NCBI GenBank assembly: GCA_038062375.1
Contig: JBBTXG010000005.1
Location: 121,210-185,209 of the forward strand
Direction: 5' to 3'
DNA: 64,000 nt
Source of the DNA: Patescibacteria group bacterium
GTDB taxonomy: Bacteria; Patescibacteriota; Minisyncoccia; Minisyncoccales; UBA10102
Shown: in pieces, positions 5,414 through 63,272 of the stretch
Numbering within the stretch: the stretch's first letter is position 1
How the letters are laid out: the number at the start of each line of letters is the position of its first letter
Translations under genes and position numbers: made by a program
Notes under the pieces: generated by a model
Seen by the model: only the letters and a program-made list of their open reading frames with translations
Database searches by the model: none
Told to the model about the DNA's origin: nothing

Positions 5414-5682
5414 TTTGTTTTACGGACTAACATTTCAATTGCGGCGCCTTCGAATAGAAATATCAACATGTTTAGCGGGATTAGGAATAACGGCGTGGCC
5501 AAACTTGAGGCCACCAGTTGCACTGCGCTTTGATGAAACACTAATGGGCTAAAGGCAATGCAAGCTCCTTGTGATGCGTGGCAAAGCCCAAACCCATACA
5601 GCGTTATCGAGCCAAGTATTCCGTATAGCAATCCCCCTCCAGCTCCCAACTTGTATGTTTTCAAGAACTGGATTGGTCTCAT
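5410..5682 (-). CDS. small multi-pass membrane protein
   Basis: 90 aa with 3 hydrophobic segments. Its stop overlaps the NYN start (ATGA) and its start lies 3 nt after the atpD stop. Confidence 0.55.
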   Translation of the reverse strand: MRPIQFLKTYKLGAGGGLLYGILGSITLYGFGLCHASQGACIAFSPLVFHQSAVQLVASSLATPLFLIPLNMLIFLFEGAAIEMLVRKTK

Positions 5683-13801: not shown

Positions 13802-13986
13802 GTACTCTCTCCTTTTTATTTTTTGGTTCAGAATCCAAATCCTTGAAGAACCACCCTACAGGACAAGCAAATACACCACCTCCTTTCGATTATCAGATTT
13901 CTCATCAAGTCGCGAGAATTTGAAATTGTGAAGGTACTCTCCTCTCGACTTGAAAGCTACGCATCTCTCTTGCAACTTCCACAACT

Positions 13987-14025
13987 GGTTGCTTAGCCCG
14001 GCTAAGCAACCACGGCTAAGCAACC
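13987..14025. repeat. REP-like palindrome copy 1 (full 25-mer plus extra right half-site)
   Basis: GGTTGCTTAGCCCGGCTAAGCAACC at 13987-14011, then AC plus GGCTAAGCAACC at 14014-14025. Confidence 0.9.
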
Positions 14026-14341
14026 ACTGTTGGTAGCACCAGCAGGACGAATTGCATAAGTTGTGCTCTCTCCAAAAATGCGCACCTTTCAAATCGAGAA
14101 GCTCATCAAAAAAACACTGCTCCCTATATTACTCAACCAAAAACCCTTGTCAAGGCCCTGTACAAAATGAGTACATCGATGTCGAGACCGACTACCTACT
14201 TTCCGTATACCCATATAGTAAAAACGTTTGCTTAATACTTTATACGTATGTATGACTTATTAAGTAAGACATATGTGAACAATTACTCGTGATAAGATAC
14301 TGGGATTGCAAAGGATAATCGCTTGCAGAACTTCCTTCGAT

Positions 14342-18977: not shown

Positions 18978-20099
18978 TTATCCCTTCTCGATTCTTTTTC
19001 GAATATCTCCAAACAAATCCGCAAAAAAGAAGAGGTTGTGATAGGTGGCGAGGTAGTAGCCGAGGAGTTCTCGTTCCTTAAAGACATGATGGAGAAAAGA
19101 GAGAGAAAAGTTTTGGCAGGTGTAGCACTTGCAATCTCTTTGAATGGGATTTTTATATCGCCGATACCGAGATTTCATCACGTCTATGCGAGTAAAGTTT
19201 CTGCCGGCTTTTTGAAATACAACGCCCTTGCGCGCCAACCGTGTGGGCTCCACGCAATCGAAGGTATCGATCCCGTAGGGTACGGCATCCAGAATATCCT
19301 CTACCCTCCCTACTCCCAAGAGATGTACTGGTTTGTTCTCGGCGAGATAGGGAGCTACCCATCGCACTTGTTCTCTTAACTCTTTTTTACTCTCCCCTAC
19401 CGAAACTCCCCCAATTGCAACCCCGTCGACTTCCTGGCGCGCAATAAATTTCGCAGATTCAATCCGCAGATCCTTGAACATACCTCCTTGAATGATTCCA
19501 TACAGATATTGGCCGTTTGGACGCTTGGTTTTGATGCATCGTAAAAGCCATCGGTGCGTCCGCTCGGTTGCTTCTTTTGTATATTCGCGGTTCGCTCCGT
19601 AATAGATGCACTCATCAAATGCCATGATAATATCTGCCCCGATCTTCTCTTGATTGCGAATCGAAACCTCGGGTGTAAATATCATCTCTTTTCCGTCTCT
19701 GGGCGAACGAAACCATACGCCTTCTTCGGTGATTTTCTTGACTGGAATTTCATCTTCCTCTCGATTCCTCACTGCTCTTTCCGGCTTTTTTCCTGCAAGC
19801 GAAAACACCTGAAATCCCGCAGAATCGCTCATGAGGGAGATATCCAAGCTCGCATACTTGTGTATTCCTCCGAGCGCCTTGATCACATCAACTCCTGGAT
19901 GTACCGTCAAATGAAATGTATTTACAAACGCAGCTCGCACTCCTATTTCTTTCAGATCTTTTGGTGGAATTGTCTTGAGCGTCCCTTTTGTTGCCACTGG
20001 CACAAATGCCGGAGTCTCAATCATTCCGTGGGGCGTCTTCATAACGCCGATCCTTGCTCTCGATTTTTTGCTTTTCTTTAAAACCCTAAAAAACTCCAT
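18978..20099 (-). CDS. tgt: tRNA-guanine transglycosylase
   Basis: 373 aa with ETPAFVPVATKG and the Zn site CKCYTCQNFSLSFLHH. Confidence 0.92.
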   Translation of the reverse strand: MEFFRVLKKSKKSRARIGVMKTPHGMIETPAFVPVATKGTLKTIPPKDLKEIGVRAAFVNTFHLTVHPGVDVIKALGGIHKYASLDISLMSDSAGFQVFSLAGKKPERAVRNREEDEIPVKKITEEGVWFRSPRDGKEMIFTPEVSIRNQEKIGADIIMAFDECIYYGANREYTKEATERTHRWLLRCIKTKRPNGQYLYGIIQGGMFKDLRIESAKFIARQEVDGVAIGGVSVGESKKELREQVRWVAPYLAENKPVHLLGVGRVEDILDAVPYGIDTFDCVEPTRLARKGVVFQKAGRNFTRIDVMKSRYRRYKNPIQRDCKCYTCQNFSLSFLHHVFKERELLGYYLATYHNLFFFADLFGDIRKRIEKG

Positions 20100-20107
20100 A
20101 GATTATT

Positions 20108-20132
20108 GGTTGCTTAGCCCGGCTAAGCAACC
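20108..20132. repeat. REP-like palindrome copy 2
   Basis: Exact GGTTGCTTAGCCCGGCTAAGCAACC. Confidence 0.95.
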
Positions 20133-20135
20133 AAC

Positions 20136-20855
20136 TTATTCCAAAAGTAGATGTTCAATGCTTCTATATTTTTTATCTTCTAAAATTCTCCTTACAAAGC
20201 CCTGATATTCAGACGGATTTCGAAAGAAGCTACCGCATATCCCCTTATCAATAATGCGTGATTCTCTCTTCCCGAGATACTCTTGGTGAGTACTCCAAGG
20301 ATATTCTGCTGCAAATTCCATAATTTTTCCCAAATCTCTTATTCCTTCTTCTTTGAGTTTGGGCTCCAATAGCTGGCCGGGGTTGAGAACGTTGATGTAT
20401 ACCAAAAGATATTGAAGATGAATATCTTTATCGACCTGGACAGCCTGAAATCGTCCCTGAAAAAGTCCGCCAACCCGGTCATATTTTTTGTTGAAATATT
20501 TTACATACCCAGTACCCAGTTTATGCATAAACTTTGTAATACCATTATCAATCAATTCTTCGAGCACTAAATGATAGTGATTAGGCATTAGGCAATCCGC
20601 CATGATACGCACGAGGGGTGATTGATTTTTTTTCTTTTTCTGAAAATACTCTCTTAAAACACGAAAATTCACCTCCTTGCGCGTTTTCTCCAATTGCCAT
20701 AAAAGATTTGCGGTCGCCTGTTTGTCGTTGAACAAACACAACCCTTGAAGGAAACGCCATCGATCATTCTCGTCTCCAAAGATGCTGCGCTTCTCTACGC
20801 CTCTATTATAAATATGGTAAATTTGATTCTTCGCAAACTGAACTTTTCTCTTCAT
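20136..20855 (-). CDS. IS200/Y1-family transposase-like protein (RAYT-like)
   Basis: 239 aa with HUH motif (PNHYHLVLEE), GGLFQGRF, and a Tyr helix (QYLLVYINVLNP) comparable to YIYINPV of E. coli RAYT. Confidence 0.75.
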   Translation of the reverse strand: MKRKVQFAKNQIYHIYNRGVEKRSIFGDENDRWRFLQGLCLFNDKQATANLLWQLEKTRKEVNFRVLREYFQKKKKNQSPLVRIMADCLMPNHYHLVLEELIDNGITKFMHKLGTGYVKYFNKKYDRVGGLFQGRFQAVQVDKDIHLQYLLVYINVLNPGQLLEPKLKEEGIRDLGKIMEFAAEYPWSTHQEYLGKRESRIIDKGICGSFFRNPSEYQGFVRRILEDKKYRSIEHLLLE

Positions 20856-20864
20856 GAGCCGAGT

Positions 20865-20889
20865 GGTTGCTTAGCCCGGCTAAGCAACC
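20865..20889. repeat. REP-like palindrome copy 3
   Basis: Exact GGTTGCTTAGCCCGGCTAAGCAACC. Confidence 0.95.
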
Positions 20890-21088
20890 ACGCTTCTTCT
20901 CTCATAAGGGTAGGATAAACAAAATTGCCAAAATAGAAAAGTCACAGAGAAACAGTATACGTGTTCCCTGTGGCCGCGCACTTACTCCTCTACAACCACT
21001 GTATCCTTCTCAAGGACCAATCCTCCACCATATCGTTGCCAAAAAACTCTGCGGCCTCCATAAAGGATCCATTTATTAAAAGTCAAGA

Positions 21089-21532
21089 TTATGGGGTAAG
21101 CATCACTTCGTCGCCAATGGAGATGTTGTGGTTTTTCGCCCAGTTGGCATTTACTTCGAGAACATACAACACCGGCAAAGATGGCTGGAAAATGTCAGGA
21201 TAGGTTTGGGGCGCTACGTTATCTTCGATGCCAACAATTTTTCTATTTTTATCAATCCAAATAATATCTATGGAAAAACGCATATCCGGCATCCAAAAAC
21301 CCGGTATAAAAGGCTTCTTGTATACAAAAAGCATGCCTGCGTTTTCCGCGAGTGACTCGCGGCCCGAAAGCCCAACCGACTGCTCCTCTGGGGTACGAAC
21401 CACTTGGAGCCCAAGCTCATGCCCGTTTATAACCGCAACTGGTTGCTTAGCCCGGCTAAGCAACCACGGGCTAAACAACCAGACTGCAATTAAAATGCCG
21501 AATCCTGTAGCTGCAAGCAAGAGATACTTCAT
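21089..21532 (-). CDS. DUF192-family protein with N-terminal anchor
   Basis: 147 aa with EQSVGLSGRESL...GMLFVY...FWMPDMRFSIDIIWID, typical of DUF192. Confidence 0.7.
   Translation of the reverse strand: MKYLLLAATGFGILIAVWLFSPWLLSRAKQPVAVINGHELGLQVVRTPEEQSVGLSGRESLAENAGMLFVYKKPFIPGFWMPDMRFSIDIIWIDKNRKIVGIEDNVAPQTYPDIFQPSLPVLYVLEVNANWAKNHNISIGDEVMLTP
21442..21481. repeat. REP-like palindrome copy 4 (full 25-mer plus degenerate half-site), inside the DUF192 CDS
   Basis: Exact 25-mer at 21442-21466, then GGCTAAACAACC at 21470-21481. Read in frame it encodes VWLFSPWLLSRAKQP. Confidence 0.9.
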
Positions 21533-24118: not shown

Positions 24119-24835
24119 TTAGAAAATAAGGGTTCCTTGAAAATCTTTTCCCTCGATTGCCCGCTTGAAATTTTGCAAATCAGTTCCCTGAATAGTTTTT
24201 ACGGTAAGTTTTTGTTTTTCCGCAAAGTGCGCGGCAATGGGATCTACGGGACAAGAGAGTCCGGGAGTCCACTTGACAGGGATCAATTTTCGGTATTCTC
24301 GCCAAGAAATCTCACGGATGGGCTTGGCGTCTCTCCATATTTTAGGATCCTTGTCGTATACAAAAGGGATATTGCTCGCGTTGATAATTTCTTTTGCTCC
24401 AAAACGATATGCGAGCCGCATTGCCACGTGATCAGTGGATTGTCCCGGCTGCCATCCTGAAGCAACAAGTACGTTCTTTCTTTGTTGTTGTAAGCGCTGA
24501 ACCTCCCTTATCGAGGGTTCACGGTCAATAATTGCACGATATGCTTCTTTCTTGAATATGGTGTACAGCAAATACGCGTTGAGCCTTGTCGCGTAGATTC
24601 CTATCCAATCAAGATCATCGCTTGTACTCTCCCCTGTCTCGGAGGCAGTTTTTTGGTACATGCGCGCAGTCCTCCCTCCTCCAGCAACAATAACAAATCT
24701 TTTCTCTTTTTTGATTTCTCTCCTCAAAAATTCCCTCAAACTCTTTAGAAAAGGTACATTAATCCCCCCTTCATCTGAAAGATGCGGCACTATGAGAGAC
24801 CCTCCGAGTGAAATTACAATAAAATTTCGTGCCAT
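24119..24835 (-). CDS. pyrH: amino-acid-kinase-family UMP kinase-like protein
   Basis: From MARNFIVISLGGS...VIVAGGG. A GGAGAAGG RBS precedes this Met. The longer track ORF would read through the REP copy. Confidence 0.7.
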   Translation of the reverse strand: MARNFIVISLGGSLIVPHLSDEGGINVPFLKSLREFLRREIKKEKRFVIVAGGGRTARMYQKTASETGESTSDDLDWIGIYATRLNAYLLYTIFKKEAYRAIIDREPSIREVQRLQQQRKNVLVASGWQPGQSTDHVAMRLAYRFGAKEIINASNIPFVYDKDPKIWRDAKPIREISWREYRKLIPVKWTPGLSCPVDPIAAHFAEKQKLTVKTIQGTDLQNFKRAIEGKDFQGTLIF

Positions 24836-24890
24836 ACCTTCTCCTCTATCGTATCTCCCTCCCTGTGTGTTGTCCAGCGCCGCCATGAAG

Positions 24891-24949
24891 CGTTGCTTAT
24901 GGTTGCTTAGCCGGGCTAAGCAACCAATGGAACTAAGCAACCAATGGAA
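24891..24949. repeat. REP-like palindrome copy 5 (opposite orientation) with 17-nt tandem duplication
   Basis: GGTTGCTTAGCCGGGCTAAGCAACC at 24901-24925 (central G). CTAAGCAACCAATGGAA occurs twice in tandem (24916-24932 and 24933-24949). A degenerate left half lies at 24891-24900. Confidence 0.9.
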
Positions 24950-24994
24950 GGGTTGACCCACAAAGTAACATTCGCGCTCTCCAAAAACAGATAA

Positions 24995-36390: not shown

Positions 36391-37884
36391 TTAGACTTCG
36401 CAGTCTACTTCGATTTCCGCATCACAAGTATCGATCCCTCCTGTACCATCTGCGCTGTCAAAGCCAGCGTCGCCAGTCAGGCTGTCGTTGCCGTCGTGGC
36501 CCACCATTGTATCGTCTCCGGGGCCGCCGTTGATGGTGTCGTTACCACTGCTACCCCAGATGATGTCATTGCCAGAACCACCATTAAGGGTATCAGCTTC
36601 GTGATCCCCGAAGAGTTGGTCGTTGCCGTCGCCTCCAAGGACTACATCGCGACCCGTATTACCGCTAAGGTCAGGATCGTTGCCTGGGCCGCCATCAATG
36701 TAGTCGTTGCCGCCAAGGCCGCCGTTGATGGTGTCTTCGCCACCTTGGCCAAAGAGGCCGCCATCTTTGCAGCCTCCCAGGACACCGTCGGTGGGACGGT
36801 CGTCGCCACCACCACCGTCTATGTTGTCGTTGCCGTCGCCACCCTCCACGCGGTCGCAGTCGGGTCCGCCATACAAGAAGTCATGGCCTGGGCCGCCAAA
36901 TATGTGATCCTTGCCGCCCTCACCCTGGCAGTCGGCATCGTCTCCGCCCTCGCAAAAGACAGTGTCATTGCCGTCGCCAGCCCAAACGGTGTCACTCCCG
37001 CCTCTCGCGCAGATGATGTCGTCCCCGCCCTTGCCATAGATTTCATCAGGTCCATCGCTTCCGAGGATAATATCGTTACCTCCGGTTCCAACGATCATCC
37101 CGGATCCTGTGATGGTAGGCTTCGCACAGGGATCTCCGCCTCTCGCTAAGATATACGGCCGGTCTGCGGGAGTTCCTGAAGTTTCCTTGACCAGCACCTC
37201 AAATGAACCGGGGAATGTATCGAACCACTCGTGCATCGAACAGCCCCAGCCCGAAAGAGATGCGTTGGTCGACCCTGCCATGGCAAGGTGGGCCGGGTTC
37301 ACGATGACTGCCGAGTCGGGGCAGCCGTTTTGCCCTTGTACCTTGAAACTACCAAGCTGGTCCAAAACCGGCACGGCAGTGCTTGCCCCCACATTGAAAT
37401 AGTAACAGCTGAGGGTCACGTACAGCCCTGTTCCCGAGCCGCTTGCAGCAAAGTTGATCCCGTCCTTTGTGAGTTGGGTACCACCCTGGAATTGGTGGAA
37501 TTGGGGATCAGTTCCAATGATCACGACATTGCCCCTGACCATCGGGCCCCAGACAGCCCTGTTCGCTTCTGCCGCGGCGAGCGGGCCTGGACCCACGACA
37601 CAGTTTGGATCTCCCAGGACGATCGCCTTGTAGCTCGCGAAATCAGCGGCGGTCATATCCGCCCATTGAGCAGGGGTTCTCACATCAGACGTCAGTCCGA
37701 GGGCCGTCGCCTGGGTAGACTCAAAACCGCCACCCATGGTAGTGCTCAAGATGAGCACGTCCCCTCCAACGCCTGGATGAGAGGCCTCGGCTACTTGGCT
37801 TTGAGCGATCACTACGCCCAAAAACGCTACGAGCAGACAGGCAACAAGGATCCAACCCTGGAGTTTTTTATGGATGAGACTCAT
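36391..37884 (-). CDS. secreted protein with RTX-type (GGxGxD) calcium-binding repeats, GC-rich
   Basis: 497 aa with an N-terminal anchor (WILVACLLVAFLGVVIA). The C-terminal half is full of GGDGND/GGSGND/GGPGND nonapeptide-like repeats. Confidence 0.85.
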   Translation of the reverse strand: MSLIHKKLQGWILVACLLVAFLGVVIAQSQVAEASHPGVGGDVLILSTTMGGGFESTQATALGLTSDVRTPAQWADMTAADFASYKAIVLGDPNCVVGPGPLAAAEANRAVWGPMVRGNVVIIGTDPQFHQFQGGTQLTKDGINFAASGSGTGLYVTLSCYYFNVGASTAVPVLDQLGSFKVQGQNGCPDSAVIVNPAHLAMAGSTNASLSGWGCSMHEWFDTFPGSFEVLVKETSGTPADRPYILARGGDPCAKPTITGSGMIVGTGGNDIILGSDGPDEIYGKGGDDIICARGGSDTVWAGDGNDTVFCEGGDDADCQGEGGKDHIFGGPGHDFLYGGPDCDRVEGGDGNDNIDGGGGDDRPTDGVLGGCKDGGLFGQGGEDTINGGLGGNDYIDGGPGNDPDLSGNTGRDVVLGGDGNDQLFGDHEADTLNGGSGNDIIWGSSGNDTINGGPGDDTMVGHDGNDSLTGDAGFDSADGTGGIDTCDAEIEVDCEV

Positions 37885-43676: not shown

Positions 43677-43837
43677 GAAGTTCGAAGGATAGATAATTTT
43701 TTATATTTTATCACGGATTTCCGTAAAAAGAAAATTATGTCGAGGTCATCTCAAAACCCTTTATTCTCCTTAGTCAAATACCCTGCGGTCTTCGCGCAGG
43801 GAACTTTATCTGCACCAGTGCGGAGTTACGCTAATTT

Positions 43838-56319: not shown

Positions 56320-56441
56320 AATGCAAAAGTGGGGACTACCTACTCTCGCCTTGCGACTACCATCGGCCTTGCCGTATTTCACTTCCGTGTTCGGAATGGG
56401 AACGGGTGGGACAGCGGCAGTATAATCCCCACTTTTACATT
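56320..56441 (-). rRNA. rrf: 5S rRNA
   Basis: The minus strand contains CCCACCCGTTCCCATTCCGAACACGGAAGTGAAATACGGCAAGGCCGATGGTAGT. The termini form a 16-bp helix I (AATGTAAAAGTGGGGA / TCCCCACTTTTGCATT). Confidence 0.9.
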
Positions 56442-56952
56442 CCACTGTTCGGAATGCCAAACGAAGTGGATCCCCGTACTCAACTCGTAGAAGGATTAGG
56501 GGTTTGAAATGATTATGAATTGCTAGCCGACTTTCTTGCTTCGATCATTAGTACTCCTCGGCTTCACCCGTTACCGGGCTTCCACCTGGAGCCTATCCCC
56601 CGCAGAATCACCTTGCGGTGATCGCGGGGTTCCCATCACTTTCAGCAAAACCACAGGATTCCCACAATGTTTGCGGGAGTCCCGAGATTGCTGAAAGCAA
56701 TTTTTCGGGAAACCTCGTAGTCTTCGAGGGATCTATTACCAGTGCAAAGCACTGGATCGAGTCCTCATCTTGGAGTTGGCTTCGCGCTTATATGCTTTCA
56801 GCGCTTATCGAAACCCAACTTAGCTACCCAGCAATGCTCCTGGCGGAACAACTGGTACACCAGAGGTTGGTTCGCTGAGGTCCTCTCGTACTGTCAGCGA
56901 CTCTCCTCAAGACTCTAACGCCTACGGTAGATAAGGGCCAACCTGTCTCACG

Positions 56953-57656
56953 CTATCTATTTTCATTTGTTACCAAATGGATCGGACTATACCACTACCC
57001 AATCTAATCACCAAATGGGTACCGACGTTTTACGAAAGATTTCTCTTCCGTCTATCCATCTTGATAGATAAGTCTCTACGGGGTCAATATACGCTTTTTT
57101 CGTCGCTTCGAGTAGTTTAAATCTCGAAAACGATCCACCAATTGAGCAAGTCTTGCGAAATCTTCTTGATTCTTCACTCTTTCTTTTTGTGCAAGAATTT
57201 CGAACATAAGATTTGCTTGATGTTTTTTAAGAATCAGAAATGGTTTTACCATCTTCAGAAATTTGGTTAGGTCCTCTTTCTTGCTGATTATATATTCTAG
57301 AATTCCATCCTTCCTTACTCTTAAATGACCAAGTCCGATCAGTGTACAAATTTCTTCGAACTTCTTCTGATCTTTTTGCGACTGAAAGAGTACAATATAC
57401 GGCGCTACCTGAAATCCATACCGATAGGTAGGATTAGGTTTCAAGCGTACATAGATACTTCCGTCGCCATCAAGAAATCCTGCAAGATATGCTCTTTGAT
57501 ATGTTGTAAGCATATACGACTTCCCTCGGTATTATCCTAACATATGACAGGTTGTAAATCAAAGTGTTAGGACTTCACCGATATGAGTCGGTTTTTTCGA
57601 TCCGCTTTTCAGCGGAAAGCCGCCGTGTGTTACTCGACATCATGGTTCATTTGTTG
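56953..57656 (-). mobile_element. group I intron at the I-CreI-type 23S site (about E. coli position 2593)
   Basis: The exons join as GGGTTCAAACCGT|CGTGAGACAGG. The 5' exon ends in T and the intron ends in G. Confidence 0.8.
57076..57513 (-). CDS. single-motif LAGLIDADG homing endonuclease (I-CreI family)
   Basis: 145 aa with YLAGFLDGDGSIYVRLKPN...FLILKKHQANL, collinear with I-CreI. Confidence 0.9.
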   Translation of the reverse strand: MLTTYQRAYLAGFLDGDGSIYVRLKPNPTYRYGFQVAPYIVLFQSQKDQKKFEEICTLIGLGHLRVRKDGILEYIISKKEDLTKFLKMVKPFLILKKHQANLMFEILAQKERVKNQEDFARLAQLVDRFRDLNYSKRRKKRILTP

Positions 57657-57749
57657 ACGGTTTGAACCCAGCTCACGTACCACTTTAATTGGCGAACAGC
57701 CAAACGCTTGGGAGCTTCTCCACCCCCGCGCTGTGATGAGCCGACATCG

Positions 57750-58592
57750 CTTGTCGACATTTTTCTCTTCTTACGAAGAGGATCGGACTATATCTTCATC
57801 CTCCAAAGCTCACGTGAGCGACGGAGGAGTCGGCGTATTAGTTCTCTCTTAAGAGAGAACTCTGATTCTTTCAAAATCAAGTCTCTACGGGGTTATAACC
57901 CAATTTGTATCTCATTGAAGGAATAATATTCTGCTGTAATATTTCCCTCAAGGCAGGAACTGCCGAAGAAAGAAACCTGATACGATAGTATTCCTTGTCT
58001 CTGTTGAGGCGAGCTTGAAGTCCTAACGTATAGAGTTTTTCTACTAACCTTTCCTGATCTTGTAAGCTGAATTGTTGTGTGTTGAGATAGAAATTCGAAT
58101 TTCCACACTTACTTCCGTCATCCATAAACCATACACTCAAGACCACAGAATCCAAGGTAAGTTCTTCTGGGACAATTTTCTTACCGGCTCGGTAGAAAAC
58201 TCCAAGTAACTTACTCAATTCTGGATGCTGTCGCGTGAAAAAACGATACGCTATTCTATTTCCATTCCCGAATCTTCTTTTTGGTTCTGAAATGCAGAGG
58301 TTCTGCAGAATTCTGAATTTCCAATCAACATATTCTTTTGCTTTCCAGGAGTGATTACACTCAAGAAATGCATCCTTTCTTCCAGGCATGATTCGTAAAT
58401 ATCCATCTCCCAACAACGATCCAACAATAAGAGATCTTTGCAATTGGGTCAAACTTCCCACGGTATTGTCCATATGTACAGGTACATTATAGCACATGGA
58501 GTTCACCGTTATAAGCCGATTTTTTGTTTTTCTTCGAGTGCTTATCTCGAAGAACAGGTATGGCATTACTGCCATAGCACCCCGATATGTTA
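57750..58592 (-). mobile_element. group I intron in the peptidyl-transferase loop (about E. coli position 2500)
   Basis: The exons join as GTTCGGCACCT|CGATGTCGGCTC. The 5' exon ends in T and the intron ends in G. Confidence 0.8.
57877..58473 (-). CDS. double-motif LAGLIDADG homing endonuclease
   Basis: From MDNTVGS, with LIVGSLLGDGYL and VWFMDDGS motifs. The 3' end overlaps the conserved intron core (ACCCCGTAGAGACTT, shared with intron 1). Confidence 0.85.
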   Translation of the reverse strand: MDNTVGSLTQLQRSLIVGSLLGDGYLRIMPGRKDAFLECNHSWKAKEYVDWKFRILQNLCISEPKRRFGNGNRIAYRFFTRQHPELSKLLGVFYRAGKKIVPEELTLDSVVLSVWFMDDGSKCGNSNFYLNTQQFSLQDQERLVEKLYTLGLQARLNRDKEYYRIRFLSSAVPALREILQQNIIPSMRYKLGYNPVET

Positions 58593-61340
58593 AGGTGCCG
58601 AACAGGGCCGTAGATATGGACTCGCGGGCCCTACCAGCCTGTTATCCCCGGGGTAACTTTTGGTTGATGATCTTTGCGTTTTCTAAAAAAACACATCGGT
58701 TCACTAAGTTCTGGTTTCCCAACTGCTCGACATATCCGTCTCGCAGTAAAGCCGGCTTGTGCCTTTACACGACCGCTCCGATTTCCATCCGGAGCTAGCC
58801 GACCTTTAAACGCCTCCGTTACTCTTTAGGAGGCTGACGCCCCATCAAAACTGCCCACCACCTACTGTCTCCCTCGATAGGGATTAGTTTTATTATTTCG
58901 ACAGATGGGTATTTCACTGACGGCTCCTCTACCGCCGAGACGGCAGACTCAAAGCCTCCCCACTATGCTACGCAGTCAAAACAATAGAACAATAAGAAGC
59001 TACAGTAAAGCTCCCGGGGTCTTTCCGTCTAGCCGCAGGCTAACCGGCATCTTCACCGGTATTGCATTTTCACCGGGCTGCTCCTGGAGACAGTTCTCAA
59101 GTCGTTACGCCTTTCATGCGGGCCTGAACTTACCAGGCAAGGGGTTACGCTACTTTAACACGGTTATAGTTACCGCGGACGTTCACTGGGGCTTCGGGCA
59201 CTCACCCCGCTGCACAGCAGCGGAAATCCCAATTTCCAACGGTCATTGGAGTTTGGTCATTCCCGATGCTGTACATCGGAGCGGCACCGTTAACACTCCA
59301 GCACTGGTCAGGCGTCGGCCCCTATACATCCTCTTTTGGAGTTGAGCAGGGACCTGTGTTTTTGTTAAACAGTCGCCAGAGAAACGTTTGCTGCGACCGC
59401 CAACATTCTTCTCCGAAGAGAAGTTTTGGCGGTAGTCCTTATTGCGAACTTACGGACACTTTTTTGCCTAGTTCCTTCAGGAGGTTTCACCCGTTCACCT
59501 TAGTGTACTTACACTAAACCACCTGTGTCGGTTTACGGTACGAATTCCGCTCTCTCATTTCCGGAAAACTTTTCTAGGAAAGTTGCTCACTCAAATTTTC
59601 TTAGCCGAAGCTAAAAATTTTCTTGCCCCTTGGAAAATCCTTAGAGCAAAAACTCAAATCCATTTACAAGCTTGAGCTACTAACTTTCGTCCTTTTCCTA
59701 CAGAAAAAGCGGAAGGGCCGGAATATGAACCGGCTGTCCATCAGAAGGTACCATTCGGTACATCCCTAAGGATCGCCTAACCCTTGGATGATCGACATTG
59801 CCAAGGAAACCTTGGGTTTTCGGTGTACAGGGATCTCACCTGTATTGTGGTTACTCATGCCAACATTCTCACTCCTCATCGCTCCACCCTTGCCTTACGG
59901 AAGAGCTTCACTGCAATGAAGACGCTCCCCTACCGCAGAGTACCGTCTGGTACCCTGCCCTTATCTTCGGTATCAAGCTTGAGCCCCGTTAAATCTTCGG
60001 TGCAGAATTCCTTAGCTAGTAAGCTGTTACGCACTTTTTAAAGGATAGCTGCTTCTGAGCGAACCTCCTAGCTATCACAGGAACTCCACTTCCTTCCTAT
60101 GCACTTAGCTTGATTTAGGGACCTTAGATGAAGATCATGGGCTGTTTCCCTTTTGAGCATGGAGCTTAGCCCCCATGTTCTGACTCCCTTCTCTCTTTTT
60201 CCCCGCGGCATTCGTAGTTTGGTAAGAAAACCTGGATTGCTCCACGATATTCTTTCCAGAGCTCTACCTCCACAGGAAAGAGAAAGGGCTAGCCCTAAAG
60301 CTATTTCGGGGAGAACCAGCTATCACCAAGCTCGATTAGCTTTTCACTTCTTACCACAGCTCATCCCAAGGCATTGAATCGACCTACGGGTTCGGGCCTC
60401 CGACCGCCTTTCGGCGGTCTTCACCCTGGCCATGGCAAGCTCGCTTGGCTTCGGGTTTTACACGTACTGCGTTCGCCTCATGGGCGGATCGCGCTTTTCG
60501 CACTCGGTTTCCCTTTGCCTTCGTCCCAGAAGGACTTAGACTCGCAATACATATAAACTCGTTGGCTCGTTCTGCAAAAAGCACCTCATCATCCACCACA
60601 ACTTCTTTCGAAGATATTGGCGGACTCTGAGTCTTTGTAGGCGAAATGGTTTCAGGTTCTATTTCACCGCCCTCACCGGGCTACTTTTCACCGTTCCCTC
60701 ACGGTACTGGTTCACTATCGGTGATATCAAGTATTTAGCCTTGGCCGATTAGTTCGGCCTGCTTCCCACGAGACTTCCATTTCTCGAGGTACTTAAGATA
60801 TAGTAACGAGAAGTATCAAAACCCGTTTCACGTACAGGGCTATTACCTTCTATGGCCTACCTTTCCAGGTATGTTCTGTTACGGAAGTTTTGAATTTTTC
60901 CACTCCCCACCCTTTCGGATGTGCTACTACCTTGCAACCCCCTGCACCGTATTATAGTACAGAGTTTGGGCTTCTCCCTTTTCGCTCGCCGCTACTAAGG
61001 GAATAATGTTATTTTCTTTTCCTCCGCTTACTGGGATGTTTCACTTCAGCGGGTTCGCGTCCCACTTCACTCCTTACGGAGCTCTGCGGGACGACTGCGC
61101 TTTCGCGCAATCGAGTTTCCTCATTCGGACATCCTCGGATCAAAGGTTGCTCACCACCTCCCCGAGGCTTATCGCAGGCACGCCACGTCCTTCGTCGCCT
61201 TGATATCCCAAGGCATCCACCATCCGCCTATAATAATGCAATATGTCGGCTAGCAATTCTTAATCACTTCTTTTAATCACTTCCAAAATTTGTTGCGCAA
61301 ATTTTGGAGACCCCATTTTTCAGTTGTCAAAGAACTCACG

Positions 61341-63112: not shown

Positions 63113-63272
63113 ATTACTTTAGTGTACCCTATCGAAAATACTCGTCAATAGAAAATGAACAACTGCTCACTTCTCGCCAGAACCGCAGGGTATTCGGTCA
63201 AGGAGAATAATAAACACCCGCTCTCGCCAAACTGGTTCGAGCGGGCTTATAGTCCAAAGATTTTACTCCTCG

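Follow-up and report, generated by a model that had tools for sequence, protein, structure and literature searches.

The locus and its palindromes

This analysis concerns a stretch of 64,000 nucleotides from a Patescibacteria group bacterium (NCBI GenBank assembly GCA_038062375.1, contig JBBTXG010000005.1, positions 121,210 to 185,209 of the forward strand), called the window below, and in it a gene for a Y1 HUH endonuclease that is bracketed by two copies of a short perfect palindrome. Three solitary copies of the same palindrome lie in the vicinity. A preliminary description of this DNA had compared the arrangement to the repetitive extragenic palindromic (REP) sequences and their REP-associated tyrosine transposases (RAYTs), which together make up units known as REPtrons. 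The REP/RAYT system is the standard example of a domesticated bacterial transposase, and to our knowledge its cellular role is still unknown. The features of the locus, in window coordinates, are the following:

13986 to 14026, no strand: solitary palindrome (13986–14012) with an extra right arm (14015–14026), in a 620-nt intergenic region
18978 to 20099, minus strand: tgt (queuine tRNA-ribosyltransferase family, PF01702), co-directional with the Y1 gene and 36 nt downstream of its stop
20107 to 20133, no strand: 3' flank palindrome of the Y1 gene, 27 nt, perfect, starting 2 nt past the Y1 stop (25-mer core: 3 nt)
20136 to 20855, minus strand: Y1 HUH gene (RAYT-like, class-2 TnpA_Y1), 239 aa, HUH residues H93/H95 (NHYH), Tyr153 in YINVLNP
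20864 to 20890, no strand: 5' flank palindrome of the Y1 gene, 27 nt, perfect, ending 8 nt before the Y1 ATG (25-mer core: 9 nt)
21089 to 21532, minus strand: DUF192 gene (PF02643), co-directional, upstream of the Y1 gene
21440 to 21481, no strand: solitary palindrome (21440–21466) with a slightly degenerate extra right arm (21469–21481), inside the DUF192 open reading frame (ORF)
24900 to 24943, no strand: solitary palindrome with centre G (24900–24926) and an extra right arm (24933–24943), about 60 nt before the start that a pyrH-like gene probably uses

All five palindromes are perfect over 27 nt and read TGGTTGCTTAGCC-S-GGCTAAGCAACCA. They had been described as a 25-mer, GGTTGCTTAGCC-N-GGCTAAGCAACC, which an outer T/A pair lengthens to 27 nt in every copy, and the 25-mer cores start at 13987, 20108, 20865, 21441 (given as 21442 in the preliminary description) and 24901. 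Apart from that one position the earlier account of five perfect stems holds, and so does the bracketing of the 239-aa ORF, with one 25-mer 3 nt beyond the stop and another 9 nt ahead of the start. The centre base is C in four of the copies and G in the copy at 24901, and beyond the T/A pair the flanks of the five copies have nothing in common. As single-stranded DNA the palindrome is predicted to fold at −14 kcal/mol (z = −8.3). The hairpins had been called dispersed, but within the window they are few and clustered: all five are confined to 11 kb surrounding the Y1 gene and none is found in the other 53 kb, where degenerate palindromes and isolated half-sites are missing as well. For three solitary copies placed uniformly, such clustering would have a chance of about (13/64)^3, or ~0.01, as a post hoc estimate.

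Each of the three solitary palindromes has an extra direct copy of the right arm 2 to 7 nt downstream, and folding indicates that the left arm can pair with this extra arm and with the first right arm about equally well. Such "one-and-a-half palindromes", with the extra arm 0 to 7 nt beyond the palindrome, are also seen for some copies in relatives (L104 1439–1475; L094 ~5428–5475; L numbers denote relatives' loci). The settings of the solitary copies differ. The copy at 21441 forms part of the DUF192 coding sequence: it is read in frame and encodes ...VWLFSPWLLSRAKQP... (WLFSPWLLSRAKQP) in the N-terminal linker. No Y1 remnant was found near the palindrome at 13986–14026. The copy at 24901 is probably intergenic, the 280-aa GTG-start ORF over it being an over-extended pyrH-like (AA_kinase) gene that starts at MARNFIV. 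According to how far the palindrome is read through, this pyrH-like gene (window 24119–24961) is called as 238, 255 or 280 aa.

Palindromes of this kind do cause assembly trouble, as short-read contigs are broken at them (L007, and both ends of L006; Logan contigs), and this could be taken to mean that the arrangement is an assembly artefact, or else a chance similarity. That explanation is effectively refuted. The 25-mer pattern has no match in 100 dinucleotide-preserving shuffles with 3 mismatches tolerated, and the architecture recurs in dozens of unrelated metagenomes. Moreover, an identical protein is encoded on 12 contigs from Hainich groundwater metagenomes, all with the gene order YchF-DUF192-Y1-tgt, and the six of these that were fetched agree with the window at 99.96–100% identity without a single indel, though they are independent assemblies from different samples and pipelines. 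As contigs of the same population without indels, the six are uninformative on strain-level insertion polymorphism. It had been proposed to check whether the unit is single-copy: it occurs once in the window, which holds no second Y1 copy, remnant or pseudogene, and it has one context in the 12 contigs.

The tgt ATG lies 7 nt from the end of the 3' flank palindrome (8 nt between the 25-mer and the tgt start at 20099). The preliminary description had seen this closeness correctly, but it had also read the missing Shine-Dalgarno sequence as a clue to the transcription unit. The latter says little, because Shine-Dalgarno-like motifs precede only 9 of the 40 long ORFs in the window.

The Y1 protein and its family

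The two motifs pointed out earlier, the HUH motif NHYHLV and the Tyr helix LVYINVLNP, are both present in the 239-aa ORF. In the proposed hidden Markov model check the protein passes the Pfam threshold for Y1_Tnp (PF01797; 30.7 bits against a gathering cut-off of 23), and all 87 relatives match this family at E ≤ 0.01. At the same level no other Pfam family was found in the window protein or in any of the 87 members. The score for the NCBIfam RAYT equivalog NF047646 is 26.3 bits, far below the cut-off of 80, and the relatives' matches to it are also weak (best E-value 1.8e-13). An AlphaFold2 model built from 20 homologs (predicted local distance difference test score 86.7) has as its best Foldseek match in the PDB 4ER8, the E. 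coli TnpA_REP bound to a REP hairpin (E 4.6e-5), followed by the TnpA proteins of IS608, ISDra2 and IS200. When a profile of the 87 relatives was compared with PDB sequences, 4ER8 was again the top match at a marginal E of 0.027, with pnHfH aligned to PEHMH and YihlNP to YIYINP; a profile of the close clade gave no match.

Nine residues are invariant in the 87 relatives (H14, R18, N43, H93, H95, N122, G129, Y153 and N158), and NHYH (H93/H95) and Y153 are invariant in the 20-sequence alignment too. The Tyr motif is YINV[LI]NP (Y-x4-NP) in the clade of the window protein and YIHLNP in the wider family, the two aligning with a one-residue gap. Beyond a core of ~150 aa there are ~50 extra helical residues after beta1 and a C-terminal helical domain of ~75 aa without a Pfam match. 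The window protein also carries GLFQG (the "FQ" motif). The database label of an identical protein is "MAG: transposase [Patescibacteria group bacterium]" (MAG, metagenome-assembled genome).

More than 3,300 database proteins match the Y1 protein. The best 120 are 58–100% identical to it and mostly 234–260 aa long, and all matches with a taxon name belong to Patescibacteria (Paceibacterota, Wildermuthbacteria, Nealsonbacteria, Parcubacteria). A HMMER scan of 50%-identity representatives gave 694 clusters at E ≤ 1e-30 and 9,381 at E ≤ 1e-10; a taxon name was available for one of ten clusters of distant members that were looked up (Paceibacterota). The preliminary description considered repeat families unexpected in a genome of the candidate phyla radiation (CPR), yet such units occur widely in these genomes, and 45 kb can hold as many as three paralogs. 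In the literature searched no description of REP/RAYT-type systems in CPR was found, which is not proof of novelty.

Two other associations were tried and rejected. Viral contigs have no copy of the palindrome and a single protein match at 24% identity, which speaks against carriage by phages. A fixed partner gene was looked for among 150 ORFs neighbouring the relatives' Y1 genes; these span 142 Pfam families, and no neighbour is constant. Y1 genes do often occur in the neighbourhood of genes for DNA uptake or the processing of single-stranded DNA, namely ComF, DprA, ComM, YraN, RecA/SSB/FtsK, type IV pilins and the prepilin peptidase PilD (loci including L014, L016/L017, L001, L099 and L101).

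Pairing of gene and palindrome among relatives

The set of relatives consists of 80 metagenomic loci with 33–62% protein identity, plus the loci of named homologs. Flanks were counted as paired when hairpins upstream and downstream share a 9-mer, for Y1 genes whose locus extends 60 nt or more to either side (n=79), and other ORFs of at least 150 aa from the same loci served as controls (n=312). Paired flanks are found for 47 of the 79 Y1 genes and for 4 of the 312 control ORFs. Flank palindromes of the family measure 19–31 nt, the median perfect stem is 11 bp, and 66 of 94 family hairpins have a single-base loop. The downstream hairpin starts at a median of 2 nt past the stop, and a median of 23 nt separates the upstream one from the start codon. 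The palindromes themselves are lineage-specific, for example TTGTGCTTAACT-W-AGTTAAGCACAA, TGATTGAGGTC-S-GACCTCAATCA and TCACTTGGCGGTT-W-AACCGCCAAGTGA, with an apex that across the family is loosely R-R-G-Y-Y. None of the flanking positions of the 94 hairpins is conserved, and the family therefore has no GT[AG]G foot; a shared extension beyond the palindrome is seen only in L001 (GGGGCACTT).

Palindrome and protein change together. Arm identity is 0.64 for protein pairs that are at least 60% identical and ~0.33 below that, and in a Mantel test of arm against protein identity the observed correlation was reached in 11 of 2000 permutations. In L103, L104, L008 and L105, at 87, 84, 78 and 77% identity to the window protein, the palindrome is the same as the window's. 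In L101 (68%) it is TGTGGTAGCTCGGCC-G-GGCCGAGCTACCACA: three of twelve arm positions have changed, each change is compensated in the other arm, and this is true of both flanking copies. In L001, L012 and L016 (59–63%) the palindromes differ from the window's.

As a further example, one 45-kb Wildermuthbacteria contig contains three Y1 paralogs with three different palindromes. Two of these are 31% identical, and each has its own palindrome on either side of the gene; for the third (58% to the first, 32% to the other) its own hairpin was detected downstream only. Such paralog-specific palindromes match the REPtron rule of a separate REP family for every tnpA_REP (PMC6006769). The pairing of gene and palindrome is thus both family-wide and paralog-specific.

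Other details vary from locus to locus. The same orientation of the two flanking copies, which had been put forward as a trait of the unit, is not general: in the 47 paired loci the centres are complementary in 22, the same in 20 and undecidable in 5, and the ortholog L008 also has complementary centres. Head-to-head doublets that resemble REPINs (REP doublets forming hairpins) adjoin some relatives. Solitary copies are few in the relatives' 20-kb loci, and most of these loci have none.

Palindrome copies inside genes

In 23 of the 47 paired loci the Y1 gene itself also contains an in-frame palindrome of its own lineage, in every case at aa 52–70, and four of these 23 genes have a second in-frame copy at about aa 158. 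Placed on the AlphaFold2 model, the first of these sites falls in the helix-rich insertion that follows beta1 and the second where the Tyr helix ends. The window's own Y1 gene has no internal copy. L072 and L094, which are ~57% identical, have four copies at matching positions with shared outer stems (ACTTGG...CCAAGT) and a lineage-specific apex, and this pattern is one of concerted evolution of all copies of a unit.

Mapping of the 25-mer in related genomes had been proposed earlier. Among 185,579 GTDB species-representative genomes, in which the source genome is evidently not included, a scan gave one match, in L001 (CAZALP010000004.1) at 1953–1977. Here a palindrome of the window type, with A at its centre, lies in frame in ComF as part of a ComF-DprA-Y1 string, in a MAG labelled Saccharibacteria. 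The Y1 gene of L001 (59% to the window's) is bracketed by a palindrome different from the ComF copy. It is possible that the ComF copy goes back to a second, window-type Y1 paralog elsewhere in that genome, to transfer from lineage to lineage, or to contamination of the bin.

A probably resident gene with conserved hairpins

L008 is a syntenic ortholog in which the proteins are identical to those of the window at 78% (Y1), 74% (tgt), 68% (YchF) and 61% (DUF192), with ~70–73% at the DNA level. Synonymous sites of the Y1 gene are saturated between the two (dS, synonymous divergence, ~2.8), and the ratio of nonsynonymous to synonymous divergence (dN/dS) is 0.04, compared with 0.07 for ychF. The Y1 gene is under purifying selection. 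Between the window and L008 the stems of three palindromes, the two at the flanks and the one in DUF192, are identical, although the intergenic DNA next to them can no longer be aligned. The palindromes are conserved beyond synonymous-site saturation and must therefore be strongly constrained or continually re-copied. Only the centre base has changed, as a C/G flip, at the downstream-flank and DUF192 copies. The 5' flank palindrome (20864–20890) is identical at the orthologous position in L008, L104 and L105 and the 3' flank palindrome (20107–20133) is conserved in L008 and L105, and in L008 and L104 the DUF192 ortholog likewise contains its copy in frame. A counterpart of the copy at 24901 was not found upstream of the L008 pyrH ortholog. 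The extra arms vary among close relatives; L104 has them at both flanks, the window at neither.

One way to read the locus is that the 785-bp block of palindrome, gene and palindrome is an autonomous insertion sequence (IS) of the IS200/IS605 kind, in which the palindromes are the left-end and right-end hairpins and the whole unit transposes. The best case for this is L103. Its protein is 87% identical to the window's, and homology between L103 60–862 and window 20891–20107 (82.9% at the nucleotide level) begins just beyond the upstream palindrome and stops at the outer edge of the downstream one; outside this block L103 has no homology to the window and its context is different. The unit may have relocated or been transferred here. 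However, the L103 contig is 1.4 kb long at 2x coverage with breakpoints exactly on the repeat, so a chimeric join is possible. More distant relatives occur in many contexts, as seen from the diversity of their neighbours, several paralogs can share one contig, and the fold resembles IS608 and ISDra2 TnpA as well.

The remaining evidence does not fit such an element. The unit is single-copy in 64 kb and has left no remnants. DUF192-Y1-tgt synteny is kept in relatives at 84%, 78% and 77% identity, and four close relatives are syntenic. Proteins that occur on several contigs have one context each (5 of 5 checked). The selection seen against L008, at saturated dS, is another point against a mobile element, and so is the fact that paralogs within one genome are only 31–58% identical and have their own palindromes. 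The Tyr motif is of the class-2 ...NP type in a protein of 239 aa, not the Y-x3-Q of IS200 in one of ~150 aa, solitary palindromes occur without an adjoining gene, and the family is virtually absent from viral contigs. The whole unit is mostly not mobile, though it may move occasionally, and we consider an IS unlikely.

The conserved positions could also mean that the palindromes are non-mobile cis-elements of the host, either operators of a Y1 repressor or stem-loops in the mRNA that act on translation or stability of Y1 and its neighbours, with Y1 as a fully domesticated DNA- or RNA-binding factor. Positions that are fixed past synonymous-site saturation, and the tight family-wide spacing to start and stop codons, are what would be expected in this case; the genes are co-directional with short spacers, and the window hairpins end 8–9 nt before the Y1 and tgt starts, where they could occlude ribosome access. 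Against it stand the catalytic residues. None of the 87 sequences has lost either His or the Tyr, an argument that nuclease and ligase chemistry has been kept. Neither copies within unrelated ORFs (DUF192, ComF) and within the Y1 gene itself, nor the presence/absence difference upstream of pyrH, nor extra arms that are gained and lost among close relatives are easily explained by regulation.

A role as intrinsic terminators was rejected, because the gene strand has no T-run after the hairpins and the sole terminator-like call is on the antisense strand. Promoter-like matches are no more frequent than expected from shuffles, and the known RNA families in the window are 23S and 5S rRNA only. As the full explanation, host cis-elements seem improbable to us, whereas some cis-regulatory role of the hairpins at the RNA level is possible and compatible with the REPtron-like interpretation given below.

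Comparison with known systems

Bringing these results together, the locus is probably a REPtron/TIRtron-like unit, in which the single-copy gene of a RAYT-like class-2 Y1 HUH endonuclease is resident, passed on mostly by vertical inheritance and accompanied by its cognate hairpins. It is well supported that the feature is real and conserved, and we place it with the already known REPtron/TIRtron kind, in a form that differs here. The REP/RAYT comparison of the preliminary description is supported at its core, and better than a single locus would allow: a REPtron-like gene with cognate hairpins is there, as in 47 of 79 relatives. The protein is not a classical RAYT equivalog, given 26 bits against 80, the absence of GT[AG]G and, in this clade, a Y-x4-NP motif in place of Y-x3-NP. 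Of the marks of a classical RAYT, the GTAG foot and a score above the NCBIfam cut-off are both lacking. The preliminary description had also stated that REP/RAYT systems are described mainly in Proteobacteria; REPtrons were already known outside them, in five subclasses (Quentin 2018, PMC6006769).

The likeness to REPtrons, in which TnpA_REP/RAYT genes have REP/BIME or REPIN sequences at their flanks (E. coli yafM; group 3 in Pseudomonas and Stenotrophomonas), lies in the low-copy class-2 Y1 HUH gene within its own palindrome family, in palindromes that are specific to each paralog, and in mainly vertical inheritance under housekeeping-like selection. 4ER8 is the best structural match, REPIN-like doublets occur at some relatives, and short perfect palindromes are also what group 3 REPs are made of (PMC8266576). 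The low-copy, diverged-paralog trait of class-2 RAYTs is seen as well, with one copy in 64 kb and three paralogs 31–58% identical. Unlike REPtrons, the family of the window has no GT[AG]G foot. Its palindromes are perfect, mostly of odd length with a 1-nt centre, and fold alike on both strands, and a handful of copies was seen, near the gene, whereas REPtrons have more than 100 dispersed copies. The protein differs in its 239 aa, with the ~50-aa insertion after beta1, the ~75-aa C-terminal helical domain and the low NF047646 score. The hosts differ too: they are CPR genomes of ~1 Mb, while non-IS Y1 genes have been reported to favour large genomes (PMC6006769).

TIRtrons, with their TIRYT proteins (Di Nocera 2013; subclass 2.1 of Quentin 2018, group 1 of Bertels), share a length of ~238 aa, NH[YF]H and the "FQ" motif (Table 1 of PMC6006769), and the wider CPR family has the Y[IV]HLNP motif. 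They likewise have no GTAG REPs, and their flanking repeats, which can be wholly self-complementary, have few or moderately many copies in the genome or none apart from the flanks. Judged by these motifs (NH[YF]H, FQ, YIHLNP, ~238 aa), the family seems nearest to subclass 2.1/TIRYT. It is unlike TIRtrons in that a C-terminal helix-turn-helix domain detectable by Pfam (Bac_DnaA_C, HTH_23, HTH_28) is present in 0 of 87 members at E ≤ 0.01, in that the repeats lack GGGGWSAS and are short palindromes instead of long terminal inverted repeats, and in the YINV[LI]NP of the window clade, which is one residue longer.

Subclass 2.4 TnpA_REP genes, from Cyanobacteria and Bacteroidetes, also contain in-frame cognate palindromes, in surface loops of the nuclease, and have symmetric "double-foot" REPs. 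In the CPR family the internal copies lie before the HUH motif (aa 52–70) and just after the Tyr helix (~aa 158), not between HUH and Tyr, the window's gene has none, and there are no GTAG feet. With IS200/IS605 elements (IS200, IS608, ISDra2 TnpA) the family shares the Y1 HUH fold, hairpins at both ends of the block and one possibly relocated block (L103). Those elements have a class-1 TnpA of ~150 aa with Y-x3-Q, against 239 aa and ...NP in the window. Within one genome they occur as several near-identical copies, their end hairpins are imperfect and asymmetric, and they use guide tetranucleotides and often bring a tnpB; none of this was seen in the DNA available here.

Proposed mechanism and its difficulties

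By analogy with TnpA_REP and IS608 TnpA (PMC8266576, PMC6006769), the 27-nt palindrome would fold into a stem of ~13 bp when the DNA is single-stranded, for instance at replication forks, and the Y1 protein would recognise stem and apex. It might then cleave beside the hairpin through Tyr153 with the metal-binding pair H93/H95 and rejoin the strands. Such rejoining could keep the bracketing copies identical, leading to concerted evolution with the protein, and may occasionally seed extra copies, preferentially in cis near the gene and also in frame within ORFs. With such a preference for cis, the clustering around the gene and the presence of copies within it would both be accounted for. Extra arms may arise by slippage at nascent-strand hairpins or by half-site strand transfer, both of which are guesses. 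For this Y1/hairpin pair, binding, cleavage, strand transfer and the direction of causation are inferred.

Several observations weigh against the REPtron-like interpretation. In the TnpA_REP systems that have been studied the GT[AG]G guide tetranucleotide is essential (PMC8266576), and it is absent here, with no conserved flanking motif found in the 94 family hairpins. A perfect palindrome gives near-identical hairpins on both strands, and without a guide tetranucleotide the choice of strand and cleavage site is unexplained. Among the relatives, 32 of 79 fall short of hairpins on both sides as defined above. Copy number is low: the 64 kb hold three solitary copies, none farther than 6.2 kb from the gene, and most 20-kb loci of relatives have none, so spread across the genome is unproven. 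For the coding copies there is no clean insertion indel, as the ComF segment with the palindrome has the same length as the segment of a homolog without it. The idea that coding copies are simple 27-nt insertions was dropped on account of the unchanged length of the ComF segment, with the DUF192 linker too variable to judge.

A bolder version would see in the family a CPR-wide, vertically inherited and self-maintaining pair, in which the enzyme continually rewrites a small, fixed set of hairpins (those at the gene flanks, at one or two in-frame sites of its own gene and at a few places nearby). Such a pair would amount to hairpin editing of single-stranded DNA at the level of the host, with a cellular role such as the processing of replication forks or of transforming single-stranded DNA, and not a relic transposon. 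We regard this as a long shot. In several lineages the Y1 genes adjoin ComF-DprA, ComM, RecA/SSB or type IV pilus genes.

Hairpin brackets of this kind in some of the smallest bacterial genomes argue that the pair of gene and hairpin is retained for a function and is not tolerated junk. With a perfect palindrome, few copies and no guide tetranucleotide, the system could be a clean model for substrate choice and repeat homogenisation. The latter is directly testable, as palindromes at matching positions differ between lineages and agree within a lineage. It is also worth noting that these palindromes have practical effects on genome data: they break short-read assemblies, shift the calling of gene starts and add 9-residue peptides to DUF192 and ComF.

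Other features of the window

The window contains a few further repeats. The 23S rRNA (58557–61243, minus strand) and the 5S rRNA (56327–56433, minus strand) are ~2.1 kb apart, with ORFs between them at 57076–57513 and 57877–58575, the latter reaching 19 nt into the 23S match. A 26-nt inverted repeat (56506–56531 and 61245–61270, 92% complementary) encloses the 23S rRNA and the ORF-bearing insert, and a 32-nt direct repeat is found in the same region at 56960 and 57761. The arrangement in window 56327–61270 may be an insertion or intron with ORFs inside an rRNA processing stem.

Elsewhere, the ORF at 36391–37884 (minus strand) has repeats with a period of 27 nt (9 codons) that contain GGCAACGAC (Gly-Asn-Asp) on the ORF strand; they resemble RTX-type nonapeptide repeats. 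A 36-nt inverted repeat (43761–43796 and 63175–63210, 81% complementary) has its arms 19 kb apart.

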